Positions 1,033 to 62,079 of a DNA stretch of 64,000 bases are shown here, piece after piece (position 1 is the stretch's first letter; every line of letters starts with the position of its first letter). The position numbers and the translations under genes are program-made. The notes under the pieces are model-generated. The model worked only from the letters and a program-made list of their open reading frames with translations, had not been told where the DNA came from and made no database searches. This DNA comes from Paramecium tetraurelia. Taxonomy: Eukaryota. The DNA lies in NCBI GenBank assembly GCA_000165425.1, contig CT867991.1, positions 124,001-188,000 of the forward strand, written 5' to 3'.

Positions 1033-2797
1033 ATGATTGGATTCAAAAGTAGAGGGGGGAAATGAAGCAGTTTAGGAAGAACAGAACAATAAATATTTAA
1101 ATTTAGAGGGAACATTTTGTATTAAATAATATTTTAATAATTAAAAGTGCAATTATTTCTTCTATTGATGTTACCAACAAATAAAATTGATTAAGGAGAA
1201 ATTATGCTGCAGATATCGCAAAGAGAACAGGAATTGTAAAATCAACAATCGAGTGCTTTAATTCAATTCTCATCTAATCCTATTTGCAATGATAATGCTA
1301 CCATTTAAATCTCCAGGTTGGATCAAGAGGGTGAGACAATACAATAGCATTCTCATCAAGTAGAAACATAACATAAAGAAGGTTTAAATGATAACTCATT
1401 GGAGAACTAAAACATTGATTTTGATTCTGCAAGCTACTCTCATTTATAAGTCGCTGATGAGCAGAATCAATACAATACAAAAAGATAAGAGTTACAATAG
1501 GCAGTCAAAAAGGAAGACGTACAAATTCAATTCAATATTGCAACTAACAATCTTTAATAGAGTAATAGTCAGAAATCCATATCAATTATAAAATTTGATG
1601 ACAATTCCGAAGTTAGGAACAATGGTTAAACAGGTAAAACTTAAGTTAATATCCAGAATCAAAACCAATTGCACATTATATCTTGATTCCAGTTTATTAA
1701 AGAAAATAGAATTTTCAAGACAATAATCCATAAGAAGAATCAGATTTTCAACAGCTTGACTAAAATCCAAATTGTCCCATTTGCAGTTCAAATTTTGAGA
1801 GAATCGTCAGACTTTTAGAATGTGAACACATGTTTTGCGAGTATCAATTTATCATATTCCAAAGGAGTTGCTACAAAGAATACTTAGAAGACAGAATCAA
1901 AATTGCCAAAATACATAATATTCCTTGTTTACAAGAAGGATGCACAATCCTTTTTTCAGAAGATGTGATTAAATCCATTGTGAGTGAGTAGAAATTCCAA
2001 TTATATTTGGTTTTCAAGAGAAAGTATGAAATCGAGAATGATCCAAACAAAAAGTGGTGTCCAGCAAAGGGCTGCGATCGCTATATTGAAAAAGATCCAA
2101 AAACCAACTTGATATAGTGCGAATGTGGTTAGTTAGTCTGTTTTAATTGTGGCCAGGTTGCCCATCAAGGAATGCTATGTGAAGTATACGCATTTCTTTA
2201 CTTTAGGATGCAATTTAAGGGGACTTTAAATAGGCTTTGGCTAAATATTGTATAAAGTATTGTCCAAAATGCAAATCCCATATTTAAAAAAACGCAGGAT
2301 GCAACCATATGACTTGCGCCAATTGTTCATTTCAATTTTGCTGGGTTTGCTTATAACCTTATCATGAATACCACTATCGATATTGGTCAATCAGAGGATG
2401 TGCTAGTACTTCATTCAATTAATTGTAGTATGGACGAATGGTCGTTTTAACACTACGAAGGAGGTCTCAAACCCTGATAAAATGAGGAGAATCTACTTCC
2501 TTCCCAGAGTGTTTCTATATACATTTAGATGTCCTGTTCTGATAGTTAAGTTGACTGTGAAATCTGCCTGCAAGTCTGTTGTGAAGCCCTTCGTATTCCT
2601 CAATAAGTAATTGTGCAGATCATCAAAGCCTAAATTTTGGTATTAGATTGTTCAATATTAGTCTTTTGGCGTGCTTTTATTTTCTTTTCGCAGAATTATT
2701 AATCTTGTTAATTGTAATCCTAGTCTCTCCTTTTTTTTTGTTTTATCAATGCGCAAAAGAAATAAAGTGGCTTTCCATTAAGGGTTGTGCCTATTGA
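1033..2797 (+). CDS. RBR (RING1-IBR-RING2) E3 ubiquitin ligase, Ariadne/RNF144-like, with hydrophobic C-terminus
   Basis: CPICSSNF..CEHMFCESCYKEYL..PCLQEGC (RING1), KWCPAKGC..CECGQLVCFNCGQVAH (IBR), [31 protein letters not shown] (RING2). TGA at 2795-2797; several tiny introns; start approximate. Confidence 0.85.
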
Positions 2798-2849
2798 ACA
2801 TTTATCATCTTTATTAATTTACTATTATTTATTCTAAAAATATCATATA

Positions 2850-4151
2850 ATGGGGAATTGTTGTGGAGGCCATAATTTGGCAAATGCGAATTTTTAGATC
2901 GCCAGTTACGATCTGTAATTCTCAGATCCCTCGAAATTTGACTTAGTACTTCTCAATAAGAAGGCTTTGTAGATTTAGAGTATGTTTCAAAATATATGAA
3001 ATCTAAGAATTATTCAGAGGTTATGTAGTAAGAAAGAAGATGAAGAAATAACAGACAAAGGCATTGGCACAGACATCGGACGAGAGTTTCATTTATCAAT
3101 ATCGAGCGAATCAGAAGGAAGATGTTAAGAACAACCAAAATGTTTTAAAATTTAACATTGATGGTTAATAGCATATTCCTGTGTTTAATGTAAAAGAAGT
3201 TAATATCAGTTCGAAGTACTCAGATAAAATTAAAAGTGTAATAAATGATCCTTCTATCCAAGGTTCTTGATAAGTTGGATCCATTTAATTTCAATTAAGA
3301 TGCCTAGTTTTTAGAGTACCCTTCCTCAAAACCACTGCTGATTGGCGATGTTATCTACGAAGGTCAATGGAACAATTGGTATTCAACTTTAGTTTATGAA
3401 GTTAAAAACACGGGAGAGGAAGATAGTTTTGGATTGATGGGTCATATTATGAAGGATATTGGTTCAATAATTGTTAACATGGCAAAGGCAGGTTGCTATT
3501 GGCCCAAGGAGACATTTACGAAGGAGATTGGAAGAATGATAAAGTTCATGGTTTTGTAATTTTATTAATTATTAATAGTAGGGTACTTACATTCATTAGA
3601 ATGGAGCTAAGTATTAAGGCTATTGGGAGAACGATAAGCAGCATGGAAAGGGTAAGGAGTTCTGGCCAGATGGAGCTACTTTTGAAGGAGACTACAAGAA
3701 TGGATAGAAGAACGGTGAGGGGATCTTGAGAGAGGCTGATGGATCGGTTTATGAAGGGGAGTTTTAGGAGAATAGGTTCGAAGGTCAGGGGGACTATAAG
3801 ATTGTGGGTGGAAAGAGATATGTTGGACAGTACAAGAACAATAAGATGCATGGAAAGGGAGTGAGTAGTCTTGTTTATATTTATAGACATTTTATTGGAA
3901 AGATGGCAAGAAGTATGAGGGGGACTATGTCAATGGTGTGAAATAAGGATATGGAGTGTTGTATTATCCGGATGGGAGGGTATCTATGAAATAAATTCAA
4001 GATCTTTAAAGGCTATTGGTAGAATGGGAAGCAGCATGGGATCGGGATTTATATAGGGAAATCAAAGGTGGAGAAGGAAGGGGAATGGATTGATGGGAAG
4101 CGAGTCCGATGGATAAGGAAAGGAGGAGAGTTTGCTATTAATGAATCTTGA
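2850..4151 (+). CDS. MORN-repeat protein with MGNCC acylation motif and probable IQ motif (paralog A)
   Basis: Starts MGNCCGG; IQ-like [10 protein letters not shown] region; repeated YEG.W....HG.G MORN units; TGA 4149-4151. Confidence 0.85.
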
Positions 4152-4328
4152 TTAATAAATTTTTCTTTGGAATTTTAAGTTAATTTTTTATAAGGGGATT
4201 TTTTGATTAATTCTAACTCAAATGATATTTTTTGATGAGTCGATTAAGGGATCATGAAGCAAGAATGATTTAGTTGCAAATTTATATAATTTAATATAAT
4301 TTTTATATAAATTACTGCATAACAGATT

Positions 4329-5703
4329 ATGGGAAGTTGTTGTACAGGATAATAAGCATGGTGTGGTGATCAAAAAACACAAGTAAATTTAGGAGCAGGT
4401 CAATCACAAGATCCAGATAAAAAAGTGGATGAGCAGTTGGATGAAAATTTAGTTAAGGAAAAGGCTACAAAAATATAAGGTAATTTCAGTTTGGAATTAT
4501 GAATAGCACATATAAGAGGTCACAAGGCGAGAGAAGAGGTTAAGAAAATAAAAGAAACCCAAAAGAGTTCAGAACAAGTTTCAGATAAGTGCATTAAATA
4601 AAGTCTTGAACCTAAAAGAATGGAAAACCATCAATAATAGGAAGAAAAGGCATCTGTAACAGCAAAAGAAGGTGCCTATACAAAGGGTCCAGAGTAAGGT
4701 GCTGGTGCCAATTAGCATGCTCCAAATGATAGAGTAAGAAAAATTGAAAGGGTACCTGACTTTTTGACAGATCGAACTAGACAAGTATATTTTAATTATA
4801 CAAAGGTTTTGGAGAAATTGGATGAGTTTGTTTACGATTAAGATTAAGAGGAATACAAAGATTTACCACAATTGGGTCCTTATGAATTTGAGAACGGGAG
4901 TGTTTATATTGGTTAATGGAAGAACGGGTATATTTTTGCATCTATTTTATCTAGATAGAGGCATGGCAGAGGAAAACAAATTTGGCAGGATGGTTCATTG
5001 TATGAAGGCTATTGGTACTAAAATGTAGCATGTGGCAAAGGCAGATTAATTCATTCTGATGGTGATATTTATGAAGGAGAATGGAGAAATGACAAGGCTC
5101 ATGGTTAAGTAAAATTTTAGATGTAATTCTAGGGAAAATATGTTCATATGGATGGGGCTTAGTATATTGGCCAATGGGAAGATGATAGATAGAACGGGGA
5201 AGGATAAGAAATTTGGCCAGATGGTGCTAGTTATTAAGGATAATATAAGAATGGAAAGAAGGATGGTAGGGGTACATTTAAATGGGCTGATGGCTCTATT
5301 TATGTTGGAGACTTCTATTAAAATAATATTTAAGGACAAGGAGAATATAGTTGGGAAGACGGTAGAAAATACGTTGGAGAATGGAAAAATAATAAAATGG
5401 ATGGCAAAGGAGTATGGTTATTTATGCTAATCAAAGGTTTTTACTTGGCTGGATGGCAGAAGATATGAAGGTTAATATAAGGATGATAAAAAACATGGTT
5501 ACGGAGAATTTAAATGGCCTGATGGCAGAGTATGATTTTTTAAAGATTATCAGGTCTATAAAGGAGACTGGTCAAATGGCAAATAGCATGGCAGAGGAAT
5601 CTACATAGGTTCATCAAAGGTGGAAAAGGAAGGAGAATGGTAAGACGGTAAAAGAGTAAGGTGGATTAGAAGAGGAGGCTAACCAATAGAAGAGGGAAAT
5701 TGA
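4329..5703 (+). CDS. MORN-repeat protein with MGSCC acylation motif and IQ motif (paralog B)
   Basis: Starts [24 protein letters not shown] motif spans an intron; about 10 MORN repeats; TGA 5701-5703. Confidence 0.88.
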
Positions 5704-5775
5704 AATTCACTTTTATAACAAAGTTCCCTCACAGAAATTTTTTGTTTTTTAAATCTTTTATTATTTATTGTTTAT

Positions 5776-6729
5776 TCAAAAGATTTTAGAGCTTTTTCTA
5801 ACATCTGATTTTGCTTCCATTTTCTTTTAATCCTATGCTGCTTTATCGGCTGCTTCAACCTATGCTAATTATCTTTTAAGATCGGATATCTTTTATTAGC
5901 TTTCCTTATAATTTTTCTCTAAATTTGTGTACTTCTTCATCCATGTTTCTACTTCACTTGATGCATAAGTGACTTTCTCTGTTATTATAACTTAGTATTC
6001 TTCCTATAACTCTTACAATTTTAATCTTAGTTCTTTCATAAATTCTTCATCATCAGACATCTTTTTTTCTAATTCTTGTTTTTAGTTTAATAAGTTCTTA
6101 ACCTTTGTGTCATCTTATACTTCTTAAAAATTTTCCTCTACAATTGTCCCATTGTTCTTTTTTATTTGAATTTGTAACTCTAAAATTTATCTTTCCAAAG
6201 CTGTGCATTTTTACTTCCATGGAGCCTCAATATCTTTTAAAATCGATTAGAACTTTTACCATCGGCTTTTACTACTTGTAATGGTCTCTCTAAATGTCTA
6301 AATTCCTAAGCCTATCCTTAAGGTTACGATGTCTAATCATAGATTATTTATTAAATTTACTTGTTAACTTTGACCAACCTTTTAGGATTAATTAGTTGGT
6401 TTAATGGTTTTAGGATTTGATGTATTTATGGGGTTTTATTAGGTCTATCTCGTTGGTATAATCGGACTTTATTGTAATTGTAGCTGTTTCATTTGTTGTG
6501 ATAGTGGAGATCCCTAAATCATTTAACATAATAATAACCATTAATTATCTTTGTTGAGGAGATAACATTTAGGCGTTGTTATAATTTGGAGATTACTAAA
6601 ATTGTCTTGGAGATTGAACCTAATGAAAATTTTATTATTCATTACAAACTGATTTTATCTTGGTGAAACCTGGAACTGATTAGTTTATTGACCAAATTGT
6701 TATTGCAATATAGGATTTGTTGAATACAT
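5776..6729 (-). CDS. Hypothetical protein: Gln/Pro-rich N-terminus plus coiled-coil C-terminus
   Basis: ATG 6729 (MYSTNPILQQQFGQ..), heptad-rich ..LERQILELQIQIKK..; ends KSSKIF-TGA at 5776-5778. Confidence 0.7.
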
Positions 6730-24071: not shown

Positions 24072-27000
24072 ATGCAAGTGATTACAAATTATGATAGTGA
24101 GCCCTTCTAATTGATAAATACGAAGAGACAAATATTTGATGGAGAGTCGGATGCTAAGATGAGACAATTTTATGAAAGAAGTCCTTCTTTAGAGGAGATA
24201 GATGACATGATAGATGATTAAGACAAAAGTGCTAACTACTGTTCACATAATAGTAATAGACCTTCATCGTATAATTTGAGTAAGGCTAACAGTAACTACA
24301 AGCCTCCGACTATAAATATTAAAAATATCATTGCAGACAAAAGAGAAACTTATATTTTCGACAATCTGAATTTCGATTAGAAGGAGCCAGGGTATTATTT
24401 GATACAAATTGCATAGATTTAGTCCAGTTTGGAAGCATGGAAGCTTGAAGATCATCAGATTGGTTGCTAGACTTTTATATTAGTTGAAAACAAAAGCAGA
24501 AACTCTGAAGCTAAAATTAATGAATCATCATATATTCAAATACATTGATGACAAAGCAAGCGATTTTAATGAATTCAAATCTGGAAAGACTATAGATGAC
24601 CATACCTTTAACAATAGAATCTGTCGAAATATCAAGAGGACTCATGCAATTTTTTCTACCATTAAGACTATTTTAGAATAATTATTTAGTAGAATAGGAG
24701 TTATTTATCCTGAGAGTACGTTCAAGATTATATGGGATTCTATCGTGGTATGTTTTATAGTAATCAATATATTCTTCATCCCTATGTCCTTGAGTTTTGA
24801 ACTGGATAAATCAAGCACTTTAGTTTGGTTGTTCTTTGAAACCATTCCAAGTTACATTTTCATAGTTGAAATACTCCTTAATTTTAATACTGCATATTAT
24901 AATCATGGGGTAATTCACACAACCAGGAAAGAAATATTTCATCATTACGTTTCTGAAAATTTCTGGTGGGATTTGATGATATCCATACCTTATATCCTAT
25001 CTTAATTGGATATCCCCTATATTCAATTTGTATTGTTATTGAGAATTACAAGAGTTAAGTCGATGGTTTAAAATGTAGAGGATATGTTAAATGCTAAGGA
25101 ATCAGTTTAGGCAGCAGTGGAGTTATCTAAACTCATCTATTTTATTATATTCGTTGCACATATGTGTAGTTGTGCTTGGCATCTATTGGGTAAAATTGAA
25201 GTTGATGTCTATGGAGATACTAATTCATGGTTGATTCATTATGGTTATTACGATGAACCTTGGCACACTCGATATATAGTAAGTATCTATTGGAGTGTGA
25301 TAACAACATTGACAGTTGGGTATGGCGATATTGTGCCTTAAACTTCCATTGAATAATTGTTTGTAGTTATTATTGCTATGATTATTTGTGGTGTGTTTGG
25401 TTATTCTATATCAACTATAGGAGAGATCCTAAAGAATTTAGAAGAAAAGAAAGGCCAATTCAAGTAACTGATGAAGGAAGTGAATTCATACATTAAGGAA
25501 AAAGAACTCAATTTATAGTTATCCTTAAAAGTCCGAAAGTATTTTGAATTCTACTATCAAACCTAACAATCTCAAAAACGCTCCTATCAAACTTTACTTA
25601 ATAATCTGAATGAATAATTAAAGTAAGAGATTATGATAGATCTTTATAAGAAGATTCTCATTCAATCCAAATTTATCAATGATACATTTAATGATAGTTT
25701 GATTAATCAGCTCTGTTAGAAGGTTCAGTAAGAAAACTTTGGTCCTGGAGATGAAATAATTGACCTAAAGAATAAAAGTGAAAAAAAGTTAATTTTTGTT
25801 CTGAATGGATAAGTGGATAGTTATTTTCATATCTAAAGAACTCAGAAGGAATAATCACATTCTATCAATCAAGGCAAGCTCTCTCGCACTTATAAGAAAG
25901 GTGACATCATAGGTGAATTTGAATTCATCACAAATAATGACTATTCTGTGTAATACAAGGCTATTAAGTTTACTCAAGTTGCCATAATTCATAGATAAGA
26001 TTTACTCGAGATCATCAACTAAGATAAAGAGCATTTGTATAAATTCTAAACACTCATTGATTCTCTAACCTACTCTTAGAAATTAGGTAGAACTTGCGAA
26101 ATTTGTAAATGGACTCACTTATATTAGAAGTAATTATAAAATGTTTTATTTTATTTAAATTTTAGTTGTCCATTTACATTCTATTAGCCAAACATTTGGA
26201 AGATAGTTAGATAAACTTCTGCTTCTGTTAATATAAAGCGCATCTCTTTTGAACGTAAGTCTCGTCAAAGATACAAAACAATTACAAATTCTCAGGTGGC
26301 AATAGCTACAATTCTCGATTTTATGATAGTTCATAATTTTATCTAAGAAGAGTAAACTAATTACATTAATTTAAGTTTATTGTGTAGTAAAACATTAAAA
26401 AGATTAGGATTCAATAGTAACCTTAGAATTAGTTAGAGAGAGATACAGGAAGTTAGTTCAGAGTCCTCTCAATCTTCAAGCAGTAGGGAATCATAAGTTT
26501 TGCGTCATGATAACAATAAAAGTGGATAAATCAAAAACAAGAGAACCTCTTTATAGTCTTAAAAAGATAAAAATGATAAATTTGAAAGACTTCGAACAAA
26601 TCTAAATATGAAGGAAAGCGTTCAAAATAATCTATTAATGCCAATCTTATAAAAGATGAATTCTATTGGCTAATTACCACTTGATGATCCCAATAATTAA
26701 AACTCTACTCCTAATGTTAAAGTGCTTCCTTAATTTTACAAGAAAAAACCATCTATTTCAACTATAAAACCTATGATAAAGATTGATCAACAAGCTAATG
26801 AAGCTGACAACATTGAAGATACATTGAAAATATTCTCATTTAAAAAAGGGCCTCAAAATTTTGATGATATGGATCTTATGATGCAAGAGGATAATGATTT
26901 TTACCCAGAGTTTAATGTCTTCAAAGTTATAGATACCTACAATAAGTGCAGAATAAGAAATTTGAGTTTTAGAAAAAAAAGATAATTCCATGAAAAACTA

Positions 27001-27072
27001 AAATCTATAAGATTGTAAAAACAATTTAATCTAAAAATCCTGACACCTCGTTCATCATAACAAATTATTTGA
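24072..27072 (+). CDS. Cyclic-nucleotide-binding-domain voltage-gated K+ channel (EAG/HCN-like)
   Basis: FKIIWDSI S1, pore YWSVITTLTVGYGDIVP, C-linker, CNBD (KGDIIGEFEFI) and a CEICKWTH....CP knuckle; TGA 27070-27072. Confidence 0.92.
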
Positions 27073-27305
27073 ATAATTTAACGATATCAATTGTTTTTGT
27101 TTATATAATATTTAAAAAATTTGAAGATTATTAATTCTATTATCACAGCTGTTCAATAAGCATTAATTTTTAAAATCAATTATTTAAGATATCTTCCCTT
27201 ATTTTTAGAAGGTAGCATATATATGATTAAAGAAATGATTATTTCTATAACCAAAATTTCTAAATTACATATGTATATTAAATCTATCTAAAATATAATA
27301 TTAAA

Positions 27306-29825
27306 ATGAGCAAAACCAGCTTAATAGAAAATAATTTCAGTTTAAAATGCTTAAACCACTAGAAAGCTTAAGCACAATATTTTTGCTAATTACCTTAATG
27401 TCAATAACATAGAATATTTTGTGAGAAATGTCTAAATGATTTTCATTCCCAACACTCTGATTCAATATGTCATCTATCAAAGCTGTTTCTATTACTTGAT
27501 GAAAAGTCCCTAAAAGCAGAATAAATCCTGCAATCATATTACAATTAATTCAAAAGTCTATAAGAACATTTTAGTGTCACAATTAGAGGATTGCGATATA
27601 TGTTCGGAGGGCTGTCAAATGATTTATTAGAGCTTGATTAGAATCAAATTATTTAGTTTCTTGACCAATTAATTCACTTTGACGAAATAAACTAATTATA
27701 TAGAGATTAAGTAGAGAGCAAATTACACAAGATCTTGGAAATTCTGAACCAAATATTTTCAAAGTTACCATTACAAGATATTGCATATAGGATACCCTAA
27801 GATTTAGCACAAAAACTATAAAAATATTAAAATTTTGGTTAAATCATTAAAATATATTAGGCATGCAATTAAAAGAATAAGGTCTTTATAGTGAGGCTAT
27901 GATCTAATTTGATAGAGTACTTGAGATAAGCCCGTATAATATCAATGTTTTGTTTGAAAAAGGCATATTATTATATTAATATCTAAATAGGAGAGTGTTT
28001 AATGAAATAGAATTAAGAATATGAAGCATATCTTAAATATAAAGAAATAATTTTCTTAGATTCAAAACATTAGTAAGCTTTATGCAGAATAGGTAAATTA
28101 CATTTTAATATTTAAGGCAGTTACCTATTTAAGTGCAATAAATATAATGAAGCATAAGAGTATTTTTCAAAATGCCTATGCATCAACTAAAATAATTATG
28201 AAGCTCTGTTAGGCTATGGTAAAGTTGATTTATATTTAAAGCTGACACTCTAAGATTACAGAATTAATTAATATTGGCAAATTATAATTATGAAAGAGCG
28301 ATTAATATTAATTCATTGGATTATTAAGTGTTTTATGGAAGAGGTATACAAAAGAATCTCATGTTAAAAAGGGGTATGCTTAAAGAGTTTGAATGATTTC
28401 GAGAATTCCTAGAAAATGTTTAAAAAAGCGTTAATGCTAAACTAAAGCCATTTTGAGTCATTATTCAGTTTAGGTTATAAAAATGTGTTATTTTAGCGGA
28501 TTACTTAAGATAAGTAGATAAATACATTGAAGCCATAGCATATTTTGATCAGGCTTTGTAAATTAAACCTCAGCATCCAGAATTATGGGAAGGAAAAGGT
28601 TATTAGATCATCATAAAATTAGCCTTTTGCTTAAGAGAGTTAAACGATAATGAAGAAGCAGTAAATTGCTATGAAAAAGCTCTGAAATACGACCCTACTT
28701 CTTATGAGGCCTTGAAAGGAATGGGTTAATAAGATCAATTAATTTAATAGGTTTAAGCTTACGAAAGTTATATAAATGCGATGAATCAATTGTTTTTTTT
28801 GAAAAAGCACTTTAAATCCAGCCAAATAATGTATTTTCTCTAAAGGGAAAAGGTCTTAAACTTCAATATTAATAGCTGAATGCTTAAGATTGCAGGGAAA
28901 ATGGGAAGAGGCCTTAAAGTATTATTCATGGGTTTTGCATATTCATCCTGGTTAACACAGGGCTTTGTTTTTCAAATGTATAATTAAATTTAAAGGTCAT
29001 TTCACTAGCTTAAATGGAATCAATAGTGACAACTTTAAGGTAACATGAAAACGATATTATTCTTAATCCTCAAAACACTAATCCAATTTTTGGAAAAGGT
29101 TACTCTTCTTACTATATTTTTAGCCGAGTGTCTAAGGATGCTAAATGATTTTGATGGAGCTCTGTAATTTTATATGAAAACTTTATAAATTGATCCTAAT
29201 CACATTAATTCCTTAATAGGATATGGTAAACATAATTGAAATTTTAGGCTTTTGCTTAGGATACTAAAATAAATTTCAATTGGCTTTAGAATAATATGAT
29301 AAAGCCTTAACTTTGAATAAATACTCAACAGATGCACTCTGGGGGAAAGGTTAAATTTCTAAATATCATAGGGGAATGTTTAAGAATGCTGATGGATTTT
29401 AATAATGCCTTAGTTTATTATGAAAAAGTCTTGATACTTTATCCTTGCCATTATATTTCATTAAGTGGAAAAGGTAAGAAATGTGTAAAATTAGGTGATT
29501 GCTTAAGGATGCTTGGTTTGTACCAACAGGCTCTAGATGTATATAAGTAGGCACTCTTCATATAAAGTAACTAACCAAGTTTACTATATGGTAAAGGTAA
29601 AAATAATTATAAATTCAGCTGTTTGTCTAATAGCTCAAAATAATTTTGAAACTGCGCCTGATTTGTTAAGGTAGGCAAAAAAAGTTGCACCTCCAAACTT
29701 TTTTGTAGATAAAGCAATTTGTATTATTAACTTTACATCATTTAGAATTTTGTGAATTCAAAAAATAAATCCTAGAAATATGTTTAGAAATCATCATAAA
29801 TGAGAATTCAACAAAGATTAGTTGA
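27306..29825 (+). CDS. TPR-repeat protein: N-terminal Cys/His cluster plus 15 TPR exons
   Basis: N-terminal CLNH..YFCQLPQCQQHRIFCEKC..H. Fourteen 102-nt exons and one 90-nt exon, each one TPR-like unit (e.g. GECLRMLMDFNNALVYYEKVLILYPCHYISLSGK), separated by phase-1 introns; TGA 29823-29825. Confidence 0.88.
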
Positions 29826-30551
29826 ATATTATTTTAATATTATTATAAATATACAATTAAATTAAATATATTAAATAATATTACTGATCATTAGAAAAAT
29901 TAGTATTGTGCAAATTTTCTGAAATGATAAAAATTAGTATGCATCATTATAATTTCATTTCGAATTCGATTTGCTTAAATTTTCATCTTACTCTATGACA
30001 AAAATAAATGAGTTATTTGTAAAATAAAAAAAGCTATCAAAGTTTCTTCATTTTTAATTTGAGAGTTTAGATTCCTTTACATTAGATTTGTAATAAAATG
30101 AGATGTTAATTGTTGTTTTAAATAATCTGTAAATTTTTTAAGATCAATCCTCTACTTATGTCTCATGAACAATTTACAAGATTTTCTTCTAAATTTTAAA
30201 GCTCATCTTTTTCTATTATTTTAATACATACATTCAAACAAACTAATCAATCTTGGAAAGCAGAATACTACCTAATTGTTAATCAAGTCTTATAAAATTT
30301 GGTTTACATAAGAGCTTCAAATTCTTAATTATCAAATTAACAAGATCAATATCACTCTATGGTAGGGGAAAAGTTTATATACTTAAAAATATAGAGTAAC
30401 ACGAAAGAGATAAAGTTAATTGCATCACTTTTTTCATTATATTCGACAAAATATATAAATATGAGAGTGTGTATACGTTGATTAGTTTTTATTCTTTAAA
30501 ATATTGATTAAAAGTTTATAAAATAATTTATAAGACCACTATGATAATGCA

Positions 30552-31500
30552 TCATAACTTTGATAGTTGGTATTTTATAAAAGCATCCTGAAACCCATTT
30601 CCTATGCGGCAAAATAAAAGTATTTAGCTTCTGATTTCCTTTATAATTCTAATAATGAATCAGCTAAAAAGAAAATTACAGAATAATTTACCTTTACATT
30701 TAAATCTAGAAGCATCAGTTTTTATTTTAAGGGCTTGTTCAAAATTTTAGAGTGCATCCATATTTTTCTATATTTTTTGTAGGATTAAATCTGAATAAAA
30801 AAAATATTAACCTTTCCTTTCATATGACGAATCAAATTTTGGATTAAAAGATATTGCTTCATCATAACATTCAATTTCTTCTTGATATTGTTTCAATTAG
30901 TTTAATGCACGACCTAAATAATAATATTAAACAATTAATTGCCCTTGCAAGTCCAAGTAATTTCAGATTTAGGATTAATAGATATAGCTTTATTGTAACA
31001 TTAAATTGCTTCTTCATATTAATTCTAATCGCCTAATGTAATTCCTAATTATCATAATTTTACAATTAATTACCTTTCAAAAACCATGAATAATCATTTT
31101 TAGGATTTATAGAAATTCATTGAAACATTGAATAGCTTAATGATATTGATACAAATTGCCTAATGCAAATCCTAAATATTAATAATTAACAATGAATTAC
31201 CTTTGCCATTCAATGCAGTGTCAGATTAATGGTTAATGGAAATAGTTTCGTTGTAACAATTAATTGCTTCTTGATATTGCTTCAATTTGGTTAATGCATC
31301 ACCTAAAATTTTAAAATAATATAAATTACCCTTGCCAATATATGCAGAATCATATTTAGGATTAATAAATATGGCTTAATTATAAAATAAAATTGCTTCT
31401 TGATATTAATTTGAATTGTATAATGCAGATCCTAAATATTATATTTAACAATTTACTACCCTTATCATACCACACTTATTCTTCTTAAGAATTAATAGAA
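30552..31500 (-). pseudogene. Decayed TPR exon-array gene
   Basis: TPR exons (GSALYNSNQYQEAILFYNQAIFINPKYDSAYIGK etc.) between phase-1 introns. Exon 31171-31074 is 98 nt (4-nt deletion, frameshift into TGA). No recognisable 5' end. Confidence 0.75.
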
Positions 31501-36760: not shown

Positions 36761-39700
36761 TCAACCAATTAATTTTAAAAATTAACTCTTTTTTCTTAAG
36801 CTATTCACCATCATACTTGGTCTTTATGCTTACAAAATACTGGATCGAATAACCATTTTATTGGTTTAAGTCTTTGTTTATGAACTCTTCATAGAAGAAG
36901 GTATAACATCAGCCTTTTATTATTATTGTTATTATTGCTATTATTATTCTTATTGTTTTTTTGTATTTTATTATTATTACTATTATTATTTCTATTGTTT
37001 AAGCTCTTCCTCTCTTATCTTATCTCGTTATTATTTAATGCATCTTAAAAATTTCATTAACTTTTCTCCGAATTTATCACTTGCATCAGCAGGATTCTCG
37101 CATAAAAATTTAGCTGTCTTTTTATAATCCGTGTCCAATTTTTGTATTTTTAATTCCAAATCCTTGGTATTCTCTTATAATTTTGATTATACATCCTTCA
37201 AAGTATCAACAATTTTATCATTTTCATCATTTGATTTGCATTCAATTGCTTTAGATACTGTATTCAGACCTTTTTTAATTTCATTTAAATTTGTGTTCAG
37301 TTGAGTTATAGGTAATTTAGTAATGATATCAAATCTGTCCAAATCTATCTCTTCATTGAACTTAATCTGCTTAATAATATATTATAGAACATTAGATTTA
37401 TTATCTAAGCCTTTCACATCAGTTAATTTTTCAATTTATTCTAATTTGAATCCCCAAGCTCCTCCTTTGGCAGATTAACCATTCAGATAATTACCAACAG
37501 CCAACGAATATTCAATCAATTAAGTAACCCATCCCATGGCAAGTAAATCATTAAACACATCAAGTGAAGTAATTTAAGCATCTAGATCCGTTACGTATTC
37601 AACGTATTAGCAAGAAAATTTAAGGGCTTTAATTCTGATAGAGAATCCCTTTAATTGGGAAATCTTCAGGATGTATTTCTCCGGATTACCAAGCAATTCT
37701 TTATCTCCATCGTAACCCTGCACAGTTCCTATTTCATCTTCTGTTGGTGTGATTACATCTAAACTTTCTAGTGTTGGTAATGTTAGGATTTTTTCATCAC
37801 ATTTAATCAAAGCTTCATATAATAAAGTTGGAGATATTTTCAATTTCATCAAGACTAACTCCATATTCTTTTATCTCTCAGGTTGCAGTAAGGAGATTTT
37901 TTAAGGCTAAGCTGATTAGGATTTAGGATTTGAATCTGCTTATTGAGCTTATTGTTTTTTTGAGAATTCTTTTTCTAAAAATTCAATATCCAATTTCACA
38001 TCTAAATCCTTGATATTCTCAAATATAGTATCTTTTATTTATGCTTTTTAAGTGATTATCGTCCATTAAACAGGTTTCATAGGAACGCTGGGATTTTATT
38101 TTTATTTTAAGCCTTAATTTTGTGGCTATGGAGGAGCTCCAAAAGGGGGAGGTGGTGCAGATCCTCCAGGTGGTTATGGAGCTCCTGGAGGAGGAGGTGG
38201 TGGAGGACCACCTGCTTTACTACCAGGAGGAGGTGGTGGTGGAGGGGGACCTCCAGGAGGACGGGGAACTCCTGGAGGAGGTGGTGGAGGTGGAGGTCCT
38301 GCTTTCATGGGCGGTGGTGGAGGAGGAGGAGGTGCTGCAATTTTTGGAGGAGGAGGTGGTGGAGGTAAAGGAGCTGATTTAACTGGAGGAGGAGGGGGAG
38401 GTGGAGGAGGAGGAAGTGAAGGAGCATTTGGAGGTTATTGGGGCACTGATTAAGAAGTATTTGAAGGCCCAGCGGCTTAAATAGTTTAGTTAAGTTTTTC
38501 AAGGTTCTTAATTTGATTTTAAAGTTTCTCAATTTCTTTTGATTACTCAATATTTTGAGCTTCTTTTAAGATTGTTTAGGCTTTGATAGTTTCTAATTCT
38601 TTGGTTAATTTATCAATTTAACTTAGATATTCTTATTGCAAGGAATTGGTTTGAGTAATTTTTTCATTTAGTTTAATAACTTCCTATTCTTTTGAAGTTA
38701 GCTACATTTGGGCCTGCTTTTAACCCTGGATTATTGATTTAATTTATTTTTCTAAGTCTCTAATGGATTGCTGTGCTTTTTCGTAATCCTCATAGATTTG
38801 ATCATGTTTAGGAATCTCAATAATTTCATCATCTTCTTCGTCTATAAGCAACCTTTAGAGAGCTTATTCACTCAATTCCCACATATCTCTCACTTTTAGA
38901 TTTGACATGAAATTTAAGATGGTTAGGAATTTACCGTAGGAATCGAGTTGTAGGGATTATTACTTAACAATATCAAAAAGCTTTTGATCTGAAAATTCAA
39001 TGATTTTGGTAGGTTTTCTTTCTGAATCAAATTCAAAGTTACGAATTTCCTTAATGATTTGCAAGAGGTCTTAAATAATGAAAAGTATTACTTTGTTGTT
39101 ATAATTGAAATGATGCTTCGTCATGTTTTTCTAAGTAAAATTGTGCCTCTCCTTCTTGAGGTAATTGGGTAAACTAAATAGTTTCAGTTTTAGATTGATC
39201 TTCACGAGATTCATTGAACAAAATGGGATTCTTAATGAAGGGTGATTTTTGTTTAAAGAAATGATCAACATTTTGATATTTAATCAACTTATTTTAGATA
39301 GATTCGTATGTACAAGCATCAATATTATATTCGTTGATTCTTTGTTCAATGAGCTTAAGGATGGCAGCAAAATTGTAAGGAGAGATGACAGAGGATTCTA
39401 ATTCATTTCTAATGTGAGGTTAGATATTTCGTAAGAATCCCAAGATATTGACTACCATCATGATGTTATCCGATTAGTACACAGTCCTAACAAAGATTTC
39501 AAGTCGATATTTTAATGAGTGATCTTTACGATAGGATGCGAAGGATTCTACAATATCTTCAACATTATCCTTATAAATTAGACCATTTTCACCAGCAAAG
39601 ATCTCCAAGACTAGGCAACTCATTTCTATGTGAACAGGGTGAAAATTAGCAAATATTATTCTGAAGGCTCCAGGAATGGAAGATAAGTCATCGCTTGCTA

Positions 39701-40269
39701 GTTCTGATTGATTAATGAAATAGATGAATCTAAGGAAAGCAACGCATAACTTGTAATTTTTAGTTGATCTTGCATTGAGTTCACATTGTTCTAAGACTTC
39801 TAATAATTTAAATAAACTACATATAATAATTATAATCAAATTACCCTCGATATATAAGAAACTGATCCCATTCATCCTCCTCTGGATTTTCCAATTTTCT
39901 TTGCAGATTTTGCAGGGCTATAGTAGATGGTTTAGAAACACATTCATCAACGAGATGTTGTATCTCTGATTTCTCACTTTCTTCCAAATGCGGAATTATA
40001 TCTGACAGTTTTTCTTTTTCGATATTATGTCTATGTATTAATCTCCACTTGATTTTCAATGGTAATTGTTCAATAATGTGTTTATCTGAGGGAAGCAGGA
40101 TGATTTCATCTAGAAATTTACGAAATTCCTCTAAAACAAGTGTTTTTTTATTTGGCATTTTAGGGAATGTGAAATTGCCTTTCAGATCTTCATAGGTGAT
40201 TGAAATGGTGCCAAGTTTATTAATGATTTGATACTCAAAACTAGCATCTTTCGGGATATTATTTCCCAT
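36761..40269 (-). CDS. Formin (N-terminal regulatory region, FH1 polyproline, FH2)
   Basis: MGNNIPK start; poly-Pro FH1 near 38121-38430; FH2 (MKPVQWTII, LAVGNYLNGQSAKGGAWGFKL); poly-Gln tail; TGA 36761-36763. Confidence 0.92.
38121..38430 (-). repeat. CCT/CCA-rich polyproline-coding tract (formin FH1)
   Basis: GGA/GGT repeats on the + strand are Pro codons on the - strand. Confidence 0.9.
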
Positions 40270-40291
40270 TTTTATAAAATATTTTATAATG

Positions 40292-42085
40292 TCATTTGAT
40301 TTGATATAACTCTCTAAGTTTTGGATCCTAAAGTTCTTTGTTTATTTCATCTCTCATTTTGAATTTTTGTGGCTTGCCTGTTACAGTATATGGAAAATCA
40401 TTGACAAATTTGACATACTTTGGAATTTTGTAATGAGCAATTCTCTTGTGACAAAATTGGTAGACATCCAATCCAGAAAGTTCTTCAGCTCCCTTCTTCA
40501 TTTTAATCAACGCAACAACTTCCTCTCCATATTTCTCATCAAAACAACCGACTACTTAAACCTATTCAACTCCAGTCATATGAGATAAATAATCTTCAAT
40601 CTCCTTTGGATAGATATTCTCACCACCTCTTATGATCATATCCTTGATTCTACCAACAATGGCCACATACCCATTTTTGTCCATGGTAGCCAAATCTCCA
40701 CTATGCAGAAACCCATTTTCATCAATAGCATTTTTAGTAGCCTTTTCATCACCCCAATATCCTTTCATAACAGCATATCCTCTGGAACAATATTCCCCTG
40801 TTGTGTCACAAGGAACAATCTTTCCATTTGAGTCAACGATTTTCACTTCCATGTTCATTGGTAATCCAACTTTACTTGTTTTAATCTCAAAAGAATCCGA
40901 TGTTTTAGTCTAGGATGTAACTGGACTTGTTTCAGTCTATCCATAACAATTTGAGATATCTTTCACTCCCAAAACATTGATAATTTATTTCATTAATGCT
41001 TCAGAGGCCAGAGATCCAGCAATTAAACCAGTTCTCAAAGAAGATACATCATATTTTGATGGATGCCTCTCGTATTCATTCAAATACTCAATAAACTAAG
41101 ATTATTAATCAATAATAATACCATTGTTGGTACTCCGTAAATAGAAGTACATTTATAGTTTGTGACTGCTTCTAAGGTAGCTCCTGCACTAAAGCCATCA
41201 CTTGGATAGACCATAGTAGATCCATAGTTGATACATGCCAGATTACCCATGACCATGCCGAAACAGTGATACAATGGCACAGCTATAGCTACTCTGTCTT
41301 TTTCTGTGTAATGAACTCTTTCTCCCACATATTTTCCGTTGTTCAATATGTTCAAGTGACTTAAACAGGCTCCTTTGGGGGCTCCTGTGGTTCCAGATGT
41401 GAATTGAATATTAGTGATATCGTCTGGATCTTGTTTTGACATTCTCTGTTCAACCTCATTCAAATGGGAGGAACCATAAAGAGAGAAGAGTTCTTTAAAA
41501 TTGAAAAAGCCTTTCTTATGGATATCATCAATTAAAATGGTGCCTAATTCTATTTTATATTAATACTTTTCAAAGATGGGATTCTCTTAGAATTAAGGTG
41601 GCCAGGTTAATCTAATTCTGGAGCTAGTTCTTTGATCATATTAACATAGTTAGAATGCTTGAAAGTAGATCTTAGTACCAAGGCTTTGCATCCAACTTTA
41701 TTCAGAGTATATTCTAATTCATTAGTTTAATAGGCGGGGTTAATATTCACTAAAATCAAATCAGCCATTGCAGCGGCGAATTAAGTTAACGCCCACTCCA
41801 CATTGTTTGGTGAAAAGATGCCTATGCGATCTCCTTTCTCCAATCCGAGAGCCACAAAGGCAGCAGCCAATTCTTTGGATCTCGTGTAGAATTCTTTGTA
41901 AGTCATCTGAACATCTTGCAATTAGGAGGCTACCTGAAATCCATATAAAGCTTAGTTACTGCTAAATTGTCAGGGTATTTCTCAGTAATATCGTGTAACT
42001 GCTACCCGACAGTTTTATAGGTTAGTGGAATGTTCGAAGCACCGTGAAAATAACTCTTGGCGTATCTTATTCCTTTGAAAAGCAT
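40292..42085 (-). CDS. AMP-binding acyl-CoA synthetase (ACSF2-like, possibly mitochondrial)
   Basis: [16 protein letters not shown]-binding motif, [45 protein letters not shown]; start [12 protein letters not shown]. Confidence 0.92.
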
Positions 42086-55910: not shown

Positions 55911-56051
55911 ACCTAGCCAAGAAGTCTGTTGAGGAAATTTCTAGTGTATTCCATTCTTACAATTAATAGTTTTTAAGCTTAACAATTGGGATTTCTCGTA
56001 TATTCTAAATTGATTAATATTGTTTTATAATAATATTGGAAATTTTTACAT

Positions 56052-59000
56052 TCATTCATATTCACTGATTGCCTCTAAAATGCAAGCAATTGACCAAGCT
56101 TGAGCTCTACATGAAAATATATTGTATTCTCCATTTCCATTGGTCATCTCAGGCAAGGAATACCTAGGTCTAACTTTAATAGGAATACCATTCGTTTTGA
56201 TGCAGAGTTATTTTGTGGTTCGACAAATAGGAATAAAACAGCTGTCTGTTGATGTGTTCCTTGCCATGGATAGCAATCAAGGCCTTGATGAAGTATCCAT
56301 ATACCCACACCCATTCTGGTCCATTATGATAAGAGAAACCGTGAGATACATTGAAGATGTGAGATTAATCGTTGTTATCATAAAAATGAACATATTCCGA
56401 AGCAGCAGGATCAAGAGTCTTGACCCCAATGGAGCCTTCTCTTAACAGACAGGCTTCAACAGTAGCCAAATGGAACATGGCCTTTTCCTTGTGAAACAGT
56501 TCAGGAGCCAATCCTATAGCAATACTAGCATTGCATCTTAATTGATATTCATTTCTGGGCTTCGATGATTTAACAAGATCCTTATAGATTTGGCGATGTC
56601 TAACATGTTTTTCAACAATATGATATTCTTAGTAATTTGGATCGTTTTATTTTGGAATGTAGTAATACTTTTCAAAATTAACAAGTAAGAAATGAGACCA
56701 TTCTTTGAAGAGTAGTTTCTTACCATTAGGACATATAACACCATCATAAGGATAATGATTTTGAGCATGACTGACAAAATCTAAGCAAACCTTGAGTAGA
56801 GCTGTCAATTCAATTGGTGCCCCATCTCTACTAGTAGCAGGAATTCCTCTATTAACATCAGATGAGCCCATTTTATCCATCCATGTCAAACAATTTAGCC
56901 AATTTCCACCTACAATAAAACCAGTCTATTCATCCAAACACAATGAAAATGTTGAATCCTTCTGATTACATGCAATTATCTATTTGATTTCCTGCTCTCC
57001 ATTCTCTATATTTAATTCCAGAAGCATGACTCTAAAAGATCTTTTGAATAATTTCTGCAATAGTTTTCTTAATGATAACTCCTTAAGATTTCAATTAGTA
57101 GTGTTTATCCATATCATCATCTAGGAATATCATTTGGACTTCTTCATTAAGAATGTCAGTCTTTCCTGCAAATTGCACGTAATCTTTGACTGCTTTAATG
57201 TACCACCAGCAAGCATCTCTGCAATTGTATCTTGGATTATGGCCTGAATCCAATAAGTTAGGGATGAGGCCATGTCTTAAACAAGAACCAAAAGTTAATA
57301 AAGCCTCTCTTGCTTCAGCCAGTAATCCATTTTCTAGATAAATTCCTTTAAAGGATATGAAAGTGTCTCTGCCCCATGATCTGGCCCAACCAGTAGTAAA
57401 ATGTGGTAATCCTGCTGACATCGATTTTGAGGAAGGTAGTTCGGCAATGAAATTGATATGAAGCTAGCTTCAACTCTCTTTTAAAACTATGAACTTTAGA
57501 GATTAGTAATGGATAACATACAGTTGTTGTAGATGCAATCAACAAACTTACAGAAATAGGATGGAATATGAAAACGAGGTATGTTCTTAATTTATTGTGT
57601 GATAGAATTGATTAATTTAGATATTTCCAATTATCCAAGTTAGCGTTGTACTCTATCATTCAAATAGTCCAATAACCAATCTCCATTTCTCAAATTTTCA
57701 CAGATGGGATGTGCCAAATTATTAACAGTTTAAGCTTCTCTGGTGGCAGAGCGAGGACCAGCAAAACCAGCATAAATAAGTTGTCTGTAGTTGGGAATGA
57801 AATACAATCCAGTATTATTTTTGTCTCTTTCTTCAGGTTCAGACATAAAAAGTAAGTAATTTAATTAGGATGAACTCAAAGCTTTGAAATGTTGCAATTA
57901 GGAAGCATCATTTAAAATGGTTTCTAGGGATTGTAAATTCTTCTGTTATTCAGGGTCAATGTGGCATTCGATGACTGCAGTGAATGAGGAGGGTAAATTG
58001 ATGAATCTTAATTCATTGTCTTAGATTTCAGCGAATTCCCTAATATTCTGATGCTAGATGATCCTGACTTATGATGCCTCTATGATTTGATTATTCTACT
58101 CAGGAAATTATATGAAATCTTCATGATAGAATATTGCATCTACTTTGACAATTTGTCCTGGCAATTTGATTGAACTAAATGAATTGGGAATTCCAAATGA
58201 AGGGACAGTAATCAAAACCTTAGATCTGCACTTGTCTTATGTTTCTCTGGTGATGATTTAAATAGTATCACTTTAATTTTAACAAAAGATGAAAGGGAAG
58301 GATTGATTAAGTTCCTCCTTAATCTGATGTAATTTGAATCTAACTAATTCCATGGTTGTCAGTAACTTAGTAGGATTAGGTTCTACTATTAATTTCCTAT
58401 TAATTTGATCGACCCAATTGGAGTTGACTTTATATTTATATTCATAAAATCCTTCATTCAACTTCAAAGTTGAAGTATAAATGTTATGATGAGCATTCAA
58501 AACTAAACCTCTTTGCCAATTATCCCAGGATCCAAACACTTCTACAAATTAATTAGGTGATCCATCAAACCTGAATGCTATTATTGATTGTCTTTCTACA
58601 ACCACATTTTCAGTGGGAGGCACGATATTATATATTCTCCTTTCATCTACAACTGATAACCTATTTGGCAAGAAACAATCATATCCCCTGACAGTTCCAC
58701 CCATACAACTACTAAATGTAATTAAAGCTGCAATTGGTAATTGATGTCTGTAACCATGAGTGGAGATCAATGACTCATTATCATGTGATTACTCATAAAT
58801 CAAAGCAGGACTATATTAAGGTTAGAGGATAGTAAAGGTTTCATTGATTGATTCAAATTATTCTTGTAATTTGGGTAAAGATCCAATGGACATTCTACCA
58901 TCTCCACTATAATAATGTAATTCCCTATTCAAATGACCAGCATCATGACACCTGTTAGTTTCTCTAACCAAACAATTGATACCCATAGTTTTTGTAAATA

Positions 59001-60731
59001 TTGAATCTTTCTCCGGAGATCCCGTGAACAACTCAGCAAAGACTAGGATGTTTGGATTGGCTTTCCTTGCCTTCCTCATCATATATTCTCTAGGTTAAGA
59101 TCAAATAAACTAAATACCCTACGATCATGGGAGTTGAATGGGCATTATCCAATCTCAACCCTGCGAATATCTTGGCCATCTATTGAACATATTTCTTCAT
59201 GTATTTCCACAATGCAGGACTGTCCTATTTCTTGTGTCCATATCTAAGCTTCACCAAGTCTCCCCATATTACAATTGTCCTTCTCAAATAATGATGTTCC
59301 TGGTTCTCTGCGAAATTATTCAAAGGATCGAAGCCTTAAATCCATCCATTATTGGCCACATATTTTCCATTGCTTAACTTAGTGAAATATCTTGGAACCA
59401 GAGAATCTCCCTTTTCGTTTACTTCCACGAAGGGATTCTTCAATGTCAATTTCCACCAAGTGACTTAGCCTCTGGTAGAATTCATAGCTTCTCTGATGTA
59501 GGATTCAGCTTCGTTCCAAAATTGGTGATTATAATATTGCAACAATTCTTGGATGTATTCCAAAGACACCTTCTTGTAATTCTCATCTTTGCTACCATTA
59601 TTATTGAAATATATACTTCAGAAATTCAATTATTGCATCGTAATTTAATGATACTCCATATTCCTTATAACCTTTTAAGATTGTCTCCTTTCCTATCAAT
59701 TGGAGCATGACTTCACTTGCACTTTTAATGAAGATGTTTTGATTCTCCTCCAATTACTCACTCTTGTTTTTTACTATTTTATTGCATCTAGTCTGTATTT
59801 CATTTACAACTGCATTTATATTGAATTAGAAGTATCCATGAATATTCAATTTTCTTATGTACTCATGTTCCAAAATGTCCATAACTTGATTCAGATCATT
59901 TTCGTTATAAATTGTGTTTCTGGGATATTGAGTCAACACACCTGATCCTAATTTATTGCTAAATTCTGCAATAGCACAATCCATTAGAATGGCTGCTTCT
60001 AAATGGGGTGAATTCTTAACATTATAAGTAGCATTTTCAAATTCTGGTTGAACTAACCAACTGGAATCAAACGCAGTGTGATTTAATAGGATATCTATAA
60101 AAAAGTAAGTGTTTGGAAATTTAGCAAAAAGTTATTTTAAATCATCATATGTGTGATTCCCAAAAATGTCAGTATTCAACTTTTGCTGATCAGCAATTGC
60201 ATATAAACTGGGTGATTGTCCCAACTGTTAAATAGGCGGGAAATGGAAAGCCTCGTAACCCAAATCGACTTGAGAACGAATTTACTTTTCGTAATCCTCA
60301 AACTTGCCCAAACAGTAGGGTAGCAGTGTCTATATGGTGATTTCCTAGAGTTTATCGACATGATTTGGCTAAACTATTATGTGATTCTCCACTCCCAAGA
60401 CTACAGGCTTATCCTGAGCAACAAACCAACACAATCTCAAATAAGCTGCACCAGTCAATGCAAATTCAACGTCCACCTTCCAATCACCTGATGAATCGAG
60501 TGTAAATCCTTTTACTTCATGATGTTGCTAAATTTATTTCAAAGTCAAATTATCCATCTCATATACATGCTTATAACCTTTTTGCATGATCACGTGTGGA
60601 TGATAGCCTTGTTTGCGATTGCGAACGAAGATTCTAACTATCTGATGTTGGCGCACATAGATGGCCTTGTCGTGACTACCTTCAATTTCTCCCTTTTAAT
60701 TTAGTTCTAAGAAGAATCTATCCTGTTGCAT
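56052..60731 (-). CDS. AGL: Glycogen debranching enzyme (4-alpha-glucanotransferase/amylo-1,6-glucosidase) with internal CBM48-like module; apparent +1 frameshift
   Basis: [88 protein letters not shown] 60731, TGA 56052-56054. Confidence 0.93.
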
Positions 60732-60783
60732 TATTAATATATTTTTTCTTTAATCGAATCTAGATGAATTAACATAAATAATT

Positions 60784-62079
60784 TCAACGATTAATACAAC
60801 CAAGAGAAATAAGGATTCTTCTGAAGAAAGTCTGTTCTGGCTGCTCGTTTAAGGGCTAAGTTTGGTGGAACACAAAATGCTGAGATCTGTTTTTCATCTC
60901 TTCCCATTCCTTGCTGTTGGTTTTCCTTTCAGAAACAAATGTTGGACAAGATTTTATAGGAGAATGACTAAATTCGTCCATCAGCACAGAGATGCTTTTG
61001 GAATTTAACTGATCGTTGCGAGACTAATACTTTGACTTCGATGACATCCATTTATGATTGAGAATACCTTAAATAGAAGGTCTATTAAATGGATTCGCTT
61101 GCAGAATCATGGCAATCAATGCTTTGCAGTCTTCACTCACGAACTCCTCGTACTTCAACTGCTACCCTGACAGAATGGCTACACACTTTTCCTAATCATT
61201 TCTTCCTGTAAAAGGAGGCTTACCTTGAACCATCTCATACAACAATACGCCCAAACACCAGATGTCCAATTTGAAATTGGTACTCTGAGACTTGATCATC
61301 TCTGGTGCCATGTACTCGATGGTTCCACAAAAGGCCTTCTTTAGATTATCCATTTCAGTGGACCACCCAAAATCGCATATCTTTATATTCCCCTTCGCAT
61401 CCAGCAAAAGATTCTCTGGCTATATAGATATGACCCATAATTCAACCTTTATGTCCCGGTGGATTATCTTCATCTTGTGTAAGTACTCTATTCCTAAACA
61501 AGTCTGATAGAGATAATGAAAGGCTTCCTCCTCCGAAAGTCGACGCTCCTTTTTGATCTTTTTAAATAGAGAACCTCCTTCCGCATACTCCAAAATGAGA
61601 TAGACATTGGTCTTTTCTTTAAATCATACTCATACCTTGTCTTCGAAATAACTATCCAATTTAATAATATTAGGATGATGCAATTTGCGTTAAATTTTTA
61701 TCTCCCTCTTCAAATTATCCACTGTACAGTACTTAAAGAGTTCTTCCTTCCTCATCTATGACATTGAACATTCAATAATACTGCTTTCATGGCAAATAGA
61801 TTTCCAGTCTTAATCTCCTTAACTAAAGTCACCCAACCAAAAGAGCCTTATCCCAACGTTTGCTGCATTGACTAAAAGTCACTACCTTCAAATGTTTTCA
61901 ATACCTGTGGGTTTTCTTTTGAATTTTGCTTGAAGATGCTTTGCTGCTTGATCCAGGCATATTCGTACTAGTCTTACTCCAAAAACATACCAATTAGAGT
62001 CATGCTTTGAAATCGAGGTGTTCAATTTTAGACTCCGACTTTCGCTTTGACTCTCTATAAATACTGTATTAGAGTTCAT
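60784..62079 (-). CDS. Ser/Thr protein kinase, Aurora-like
   Basis: LGQGSFG, AMK, REIKIQRKLHHPNI, HRDIK/PENLLLD, DFGWS, FCGTIEYMAPE; ends FFRRILISLGCINR-TGA. Confidence 0.92.

Follow-up and report, generated by a model that had tools for sequence, protein, structure and literature searches.

In the ciliate Tetrahymena, genes with leucine-rich repeats (LRR) display arrays of 90-bp exons in which more than 98% of the introns are in phase 2 (2019, PLoS Biol, PMC6564038). The number of these exons ranges from 1 to approximately 50, even among inparalogs, and the exon phylogenies are scrambled. According to that paper, the LRR genes of Paramecium tetraurelia do not have the 90-bp peak, and its consulted passages report no exon-length feature for genes with tetratricopeptide repeats (TPR). 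A second system is found in the brown alga Ectocarpus, where the TPRs of candidate immune receptors of the NB-ARC-TPR type lie on exons that recur (Zambounis et al. 2012, PMC3341825; Teng et al. 2024, PMC11378527). These exons are mainly of 126 nucleotides (nt), i.e. a TPR plus a linker, and the same source also lists 21 exons of 102 nt, which corresponds to 34 amino acids (aa) (PMC3341825). The architecture of one repeat per symmetric exon is already known; what is new here is an example in Paramecium, a TPR gene with exons of 102 nt in a 64,000-nt stretch of the P. tetraurelia genome (contig CT867991.1, positions 124,001–188,000 of the forward strand). This stretch is termed the window, and all positions refer to it. 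The literature searched yielded no account of TPR exons of this length in Paramecium.

The gene is likely to be an ancient, frozen exon-duplication array whose product would serve as an ordinary protein-interaction scaffold. It spans positions 27306–29755 of the plus strand and has 16 exons and 15 introns, with a spliced open reading frame of 694 codons. The ciliate code was applied, in which TAA and TAG encode glutamine and TGA is the sole stop codon; the stop of this gene is the TGA at 29753–29755. An ATG at position 27306 opens exon 0, which is 532 nt long (27306–27837, 177 codons plus one base) and lies upstream of intron 1 (27838–27860, 23 nt, GT-AG, phase 1). The array begins with TPR exon 1 (27861–27962), intron 2 (27963–27990, 28 nt) and TPR exon 2 (27991–28092), and continues with TPR exons 3 (28117–28218), 4 (28242–28343), 5 (28372–28473), 6 (28497–28598), 7 (28623–28724), 8 (28751–28852) and 9 (28876–28977), all of 102 nt. 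Exon 10 (29009–29098) is of 90 nt, or 30 codons, and encodes a degenerate repeat. It is followed by TPR exons 11 (29124–29225), 12 (29248–29349), 13 (29372–29473) and 14 (29495–29596), again of 102 nt each, and by the last exon (29619–29755), which displays the TPR-like unit 15, an 11-residue tail and the TGA.

The initial annotation of this DNA had given the 15 exon starts and lengths correctly: 14 TPR exons measure exactly 102 nt, and the one that starts at 29009 measures 90 nt. It had also described a uniform phase 1 at the same position of the repeat, and this is true of 15/15 introns. The extent that it proposed for the gene, 27838–29745, was too short at both ends, the start being the ATG at 27306 and the end the TGA at 29753–29755. 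An intron that it placed at 29721–29745 is unsupported; the C-terminus of the P. tetraurelia database model P0002 agrees with read-through to the TGA. The C-terminal end of the P. pentaurelia ortholog, P0001, is unlike both the read-through model and a model with this intron.

The introns are 21–31 nt long. The codon that they split encodes glycine in eight cases, alanine in six and serine in one. The donor and acceptor dinucleotides are GT-AG in 14 of 15 introns, and intron 2 (27963–27990) is GC-AG. Fifteen introns far exceed the published Paramecium mean of 2.3 per gene (PMC5663052). Once spliced, the 505 codons of the TPR part are free of TGA, compared with 9, 19 and 12 TGA codons in the three frames read without splicing. 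Given how often TGA occurs in the window, the chance of 505 codons without it is about 9e-6. A crude scan of the 64-kb window for candidate intron pairs displays a peak at 102 nt on the plus strand, with 14 pairs versus a mean of 1.4 per length. These pairs represent 11 distinct exon starts, ten of which are exons of the TPR gene and one (28018) is intragenic and not part of the model. On the minus strand there are seven 102-nt pairs (mean 1.6) with five distinct starts, of which three are in a neighbouring TPR array and two are elsewhere.

Single exon peptides match TPR families of Pfam at E ≤ 1 in 11 of the 15 cases, and all of the matches are in one register. The exon 7 peptide is the only one that is above the curated Pfam cut-offs by itself (TPR_11, 32.1 bits versus a cut-off of 26.8; TPR_1, 28.6 versus 27.8). 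On the P. pentaurelia ortholog TPR_1 scores 188.1 bits versus the cut-off of 27.8, and on P0003 of P. octaurelia it scores 166.2 bits. In the 14 units of 34 residues, G or A at position 8, L at position 11 and A or S at position 20 are found in 14/14, Y or F at position 24 in 13/14 and P at position 32 in 8/14. Residue 2 of the exon peptide aligns to position 10 of the Pfam TPR profile, which places the intron within helix A, in the codon of TPR position 8. The statement of the initial annotation that there is one TPR per exon holds in the sense that an exon equals one repeat period, but the exon is not a structural repeat, as the intron cuts helix A.

The repeats differ considerably from one another. 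Repeat-versus-repeat identity inside the gene has a mean of 26% and a maximum of 53%, and Tandem Repeats Finder (TRF) detects no DNA-level repeat within the gene. The TPR exons nevertheless share 46% nt identity, versus 28% in a register-shifted control. When each repeat is compared with those of the P. pentaurelia ortholog, 15/15 have their best match at their own position, with identities of 50%–94%. The lowest of these identities, 50%, is that of the 30-residue degenerate unit of exon 10, whose place and length are kept in P. pentaurelia. The number of units is 15 in both species. In the comparison with P0003, 12/15 repeats have their best match at their own position. The identity between the orthologs is 78.3% in the TPR part and 75.1% in the N-terminal part, and the differences are spread along the repeat with no clustering. 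Because best matches are positional, inter-repeat identity is low and the TPR part is no more diverged than the N-terminal part, the array is old, keeps its repeats in constant number and order, and evolves no faster than the remainder of the protein.

The public P. tetraurelia protein models appear to split and misread one gene, and the merged 694-residue model would correct them. P0121 (198 aa) treats the first intron as coding and ends at a TGA. P0002 (529 aa) begins at the first Met past the GC-AG intron and keeps two in-frame introns as coding sequence. It also reads TPR exons 4 and 9 out of frame, because the intron pairs that flank them sum to 51 and 54 nt. Apart from the retained introns and the places where the exons disagree, P0121 and P0002 are identical to the merged model, and both are placed on contigs of equal length, 304,222. 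Introns retained in protein models of paralogs can serve as a proxy of intron position; clean cases were found only in P0002. In P. pentaurelia the gene is annotated as one protein (P0001, 706 aa), which is collinear with the merged model over the full length with 77% identity (531/689 aligned residues), and its internal gaps relative to the merged model are only at or beside intron sites.

One of the differences is a 9-residue insertion in P0001 at residues ~223–231, after the sequence GECL, two codons downstream of the GC-AG intron site. The boundary between exons 1 and 2 may be organized differently in P. pentaurelia.

In P. octaurelia, P0136 is the same 198-aa N-terminal stub as P0121, with 84% identity, and likewise reads through intron 1. 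P0003 of P. octaurelia (685 aa, 42% identity) is a paralog, because the orthologous stub P0136 is also present in this species.

The exon 0 product is identical to residues 1–177 of P0121. It displays a B-box-like zinc finger at approximately residues 13–51, which is followed by a long helical hairpin. The putative zinc ligands are C15-x2-H18-x8-C27-x4-C32-x6-C39-x2-C42-x4-H47-x2-H50, and the spacing of these eight Cys/His residues resembles that of the B-box2 consensus. Residues C27, C32, R36, C39, C42, H47 and H50 are invariant across 12 sequences and C15 is present in at least 90%. The AlphaFold2 (AF2) model of the N-terminal domain has a mean predicted local distance difference test score (pLDDT) of 79.4, with 86–94 over residues 11–60, and shows helices at residues 57–100 and 112–153. 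The best rows of a Foldseek search are the B-boxes of TRIM29, MuRF1 and TRIM54 (2csv, 3ddt and 3q1d; template modelling (TM) score normalized to the target, 0.47–0.65; E, 0.19–0.46), and the B-box-coiled-coil chains of KAP1 and TRIM5alpha are also listed. No Foldseek match with this domain was found at E ≤ 0.001. The Pfam zf-B_box profile (PF00643) gives 14.1 bits on exon 0 (E = 0.054), under the cut-off of 24.1, and none of seven relatives has a PF00643 match at E ≤ 0.01. There is no N-terminal RING, as the protein begins 12–14 residues ahead of the B-box-like ligands, and this protein start is common to P0001, P0003, P0121 and P0136.

Proteins with this N-terminal domain form a multigene family that spans five P. 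aurelia species, with 12 representatives at E ≤ 0.001. Relatives with the same N-terminal Cys/His pattern, helical region and TPRs include P0001, P0003 and P0126 (P. tetraurelia, GSPATT00011756001). In the family annotated as "B box-type / tetratricopeptide repeat" the TPR number varies by member, and P0128 has WD40 repeats instead.

A second TPR exon array is located about 1 kb downstream of the main gene, on the minus strand at 30664–31459, and has the same module, intron position and phase. Its introns are at 31459–31432, 31329–31303, 31200–31172, 31073–31045, 30942–30914 (GC-AG), 30811–30791 and 30691–30664 and are 21–29 nt long. The exons are of 102, 102, 98, 102, 102 and 99 nt, and its Pfam TPR matches are in the register of the main gene. 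The four 102-nt exons are 66%–75% identical at the nt level, TRF reports periods of 127–131, and the introns can be aligned with each other and are homologous. Whole units of exon plus intron have been tandemly duplicated here, because the introns align and the exons have this high identity. A deletion of 4 nt disrupts the reading frame in the 98-nt exon, and in-frame TGA codons are present upstream of the first unit. The intron at 30942–30914 has a GC donor where the homologous introns of the sister units begin with GT. The array is probably a younger and decaying gene. Both TPR-coding regions of the window (2/2) thus have the 102-nt phase-1 module, and they are not close relatives. The neighbouring array supplies the growth mechanism for the older main gene.

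For the main gene the following origin is proposed. The ancestral unit would have been of about 125 bp, consisting of one 102-nt exon and a tiny phase-1 intron in the small-residue codon at TPR position 8, and it would have undergone many tandem duplications. The same intron position and phase are found in all copies because, on this proposal, they were inherited with the duplicated unit. The growth would be older than the split of P. tetraurelia and P. pentaurelia and older than an earlier gene duplication. Since then the number and order of units would have been frozen, and the gene would have evolved like that of a scaffold. The predicted product is a soluble protein of ~694 residues in which a B-box-like zinc finger and then a helical hairpin or coiled coil precede 15 TPRs that form a superhelix, one unit of which would be shortened to 30 residues. 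The N-terminal part may mediate oligomerization, and the TPR superhelix may provide the scaffold function. Since the tiny introns are what is recognized in Paramecium splicing, there would be no exon skipping and the gene would make one protein and not a repertoire.

Several points weigh against this reading. The full arrays that could be compared come from two relatives only and are protein models without DNA. The 15 introns are inferred from the sequence together with the ortholog protein models, the 58-nt RNA reads being too few to show a joint, and the GC donor of intron 2 is a putative one. The B-box assignment is weak, the Pfam score being below the cut-off and the Foldseek E-values 0.19 or higher. 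The P. tetraurelia and P. octaurelia models (P0121 and P0136) stop after exon 0, and for P. octaurelia, P. primaurelia and P. sonneborni the search gave no TPR-part model. The missing models could represent decay or patchy retention rather than stable conservation, or they could represent trouble with annotation.

These last points bear on a different explanation, namely that the gene is decaying in the lineage of P. tetraurelia and P. octaurelia. According to this, a T-to-C change at the intron 2 donor (27963) has stopped splicing, the frame then meets a TGA at about position 28024, and the locus yields at most the N-terminal product of 198 residues; the TPR array would be a recently orphaned relic. 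The early ends of the models in both species, the lack of a P. octaurelia TPR-part model among those found and the low RNA coverage fit such an explanation, as does the GC donor that is likewise present in the frameshifted neighbouring array. GC donors occur in 2/22 introns over both TPR genes (27963–27990 on the plus strand and 30942–30914 on the minus strand). However, the 505 codons downstream are free of TGA, which has the low probability by chance given above, and they are 78% identical to those of P. pentaurelia. RNA reads obtained with oligo-dT (58 nt; 21 in run X19 and 51 in run X20) are on the TPR part as well as on exon 0. The first mate is on the minus strand in all 21 reads of X19 and in most of those of X20. 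GC-AG introns are, as a general matter, the commonest non-canonical class of the major spliceosome, although no report of them in Paramecium was found in the literature searched. Decay of the locus is considered improbable.

An additional observation concerns 12 sequencing runs labelled "RNA?". These contain 0.53–0.66 of the 31-mers sampled from 27250–29850, and DNA-like runs contain 0.96–1.00. A fully spliced mRNA would retain 0.62–0.68 of the 31-mers. The fractions of the "RNA?" runs are suggestive of splicing and are not counted as evidence.

The initial annotation had proposed a system of exon-shuffling receptors, in which skipping, duplication or exchange of the symmetric 102-nt exons would let the TPRs form variable surfaces for recognition or defence. 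The modular architecture of symmetric exons is as it described, and duplication of units is found in the neighbouring array. All exons are symmetric (1-1), such that gain, loss or swap of an exon preserves the frame. The second array at a distance of 1 kb, with young duplicates and a broken unit, fits a process of birth and death, the N-terminal domain belongs to a gene family with members in five P. aurelia species, and there are precedents in the 90-bp LRR exons of Tetrahymena (PMC6564038) and the NB-ARC-TPR exons of 126 and 102 nt of Ectocarpus (PMC3341825). The proposed function of variable binding surfaces, on the other hand, finds no support in this gene. Fixed order and number, with exons that cluster by position in orthologs, was named in the initial annotation as the pattern that would speak against shuffling, and it is the pattern seen here: positional matches are 15/15 in the ortholog and 12/15 in the paralog, and the unit number is unchanged between species. 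Nor does the gene have a repeat at the nucleotide level, an array more diverged than the N-terminal domain, or differences that cluster within the repeat. Exon skipping is not known in Paramecium, and genome-wide RNA-seq in two studies found none (PMC5663052, PMC8997360). Splicing by intron definition rules out combinatorial skipping. Inspection of the protein sequence gives no signal peptide or membrane segment, no NB-ARC is found in exon 0 with Pfam, and the Pfam matches of P0001 (precomputed list; 25/26 scan families) have no NB-ARC, kinase or other signalling domain. A receptor system of this type is therefore regarded as quite unlikely, a little more so than decay of the gene.

Independent gain of an intron in each repeat at a proto-splice site (..AG|G), after the array was formed, is very improbable. 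In its favour, AG ends 12 of the 15 exons located upstream of an intron, and beyond the splice signals no obvious common sequence is seen among the main-gene introns. Against it, one insertion is a much more parsimonious explanation than fifteen at a single codon position, the neighbouring array duplicated its units together with the introns, and an unrelated TPR gene agrees with this one in where the intron cuts the TPR and in its phase.

An extension of the duplication and freezing proposed for the main gene is a genome-wide class of Paramecium TPR genes, which would be the TPR counterpart of the 90-bp LRR exon arrays of Tetrahymena. The class would derive from a shared 102-nt phase-1 module whose intron splits the codon of TPR position 8, and it would both grow and decay through tandem duplication of exon-plus-intron units. 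No report of such a class was found in the literature searched. Such a class may span old and frozen members, like the main gene, and young members that are turning over, like its neighbour. This is offered tentatively, as a possibility with somewhat less than an even chance. If true genome-wide, the 102-nt module would be a second and independent ciliate case of exact-length exon arrays that arise and turn over.

The surrounding DNA is AT-rich, with a GC content of 0.23–0.37 in 2-kb windows, and its long reading frames depend on the translation of TAA and TAG as glutamine. The database entry of P0002, which is identical to the spliced model where both use the same exons, is labelled as a macronuclear product of P. 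tetraurelia, and the window is therefore macronuclear DNA of this species. The GC content is higher at 2001–6000, 38001–42000 and 56001–62000 (0.33–0.37 versus 0.23–0.30 elsewhere), and there is a strong GC skew at 2–6 kb. Just upstream of the TPR gene, at 24403–27069 on the plus strand, is an 889-codon frame with Ion_trans, Ion_trans_2 and cNMP_binding matches and a TVGYGD pore motif. It resembles a gene for a potassium channel with cyclic-nucleotide binding.

The TPR gene is an unusually clean record of the growth of a repeat protein by duplication of exon plus intron units. It also indicates that modular genes with symmetric exons need not generate diversity, as the exons can stay frozen for a long time. 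The domain order of the predicted protein is similar to that of the TRIM / RBCC proteins, which consist of a RING, a B-box, a coiled coil and a C-terminal substrate-binding repeat domain. The shared order is a B-box-like zinc finger that leads directly into a long helical hairpin, with a repeat domain after it. Unlike TRIM / RBCC proteins, the Paramecium protein is without an N-terminal RING.

The Ectocarpus NB-ARC-TPR genes are similar in that TPR units are on individual symmetric exons of identical length. Only in Ectocarpus is there a fusion to NB-ARC, inactivated exon copies are found in long introns and the paralogs cannot be aligned. The Paramecium gene, in contrast, has no NB-ARC, its introns are of 21–31 nt and its arrays align repeat for repeat. 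The analogy that the initial annotation drew to the LRR arrays of Tetrahymena is formally a good one, since both display symmetric exons with one repeat period each (PMC6564038). The likeness extends to a ciliate gene with an exon of exact length per repeat period, an extreme bias to a single intron phase and a "junction" codon shared by neighbouring exons, and both are believed to have grown as exon units were duplicated. The two systems differ in that the Paramecium gene has TPRs, 102 nt and phase 1 and the Tetrahymena genes have LRRs, 90 and phase 2. Unlike the Tetrahymena arrays, the Paramecium array has its 15 units unchanged, and in unchanged order, in a second species.

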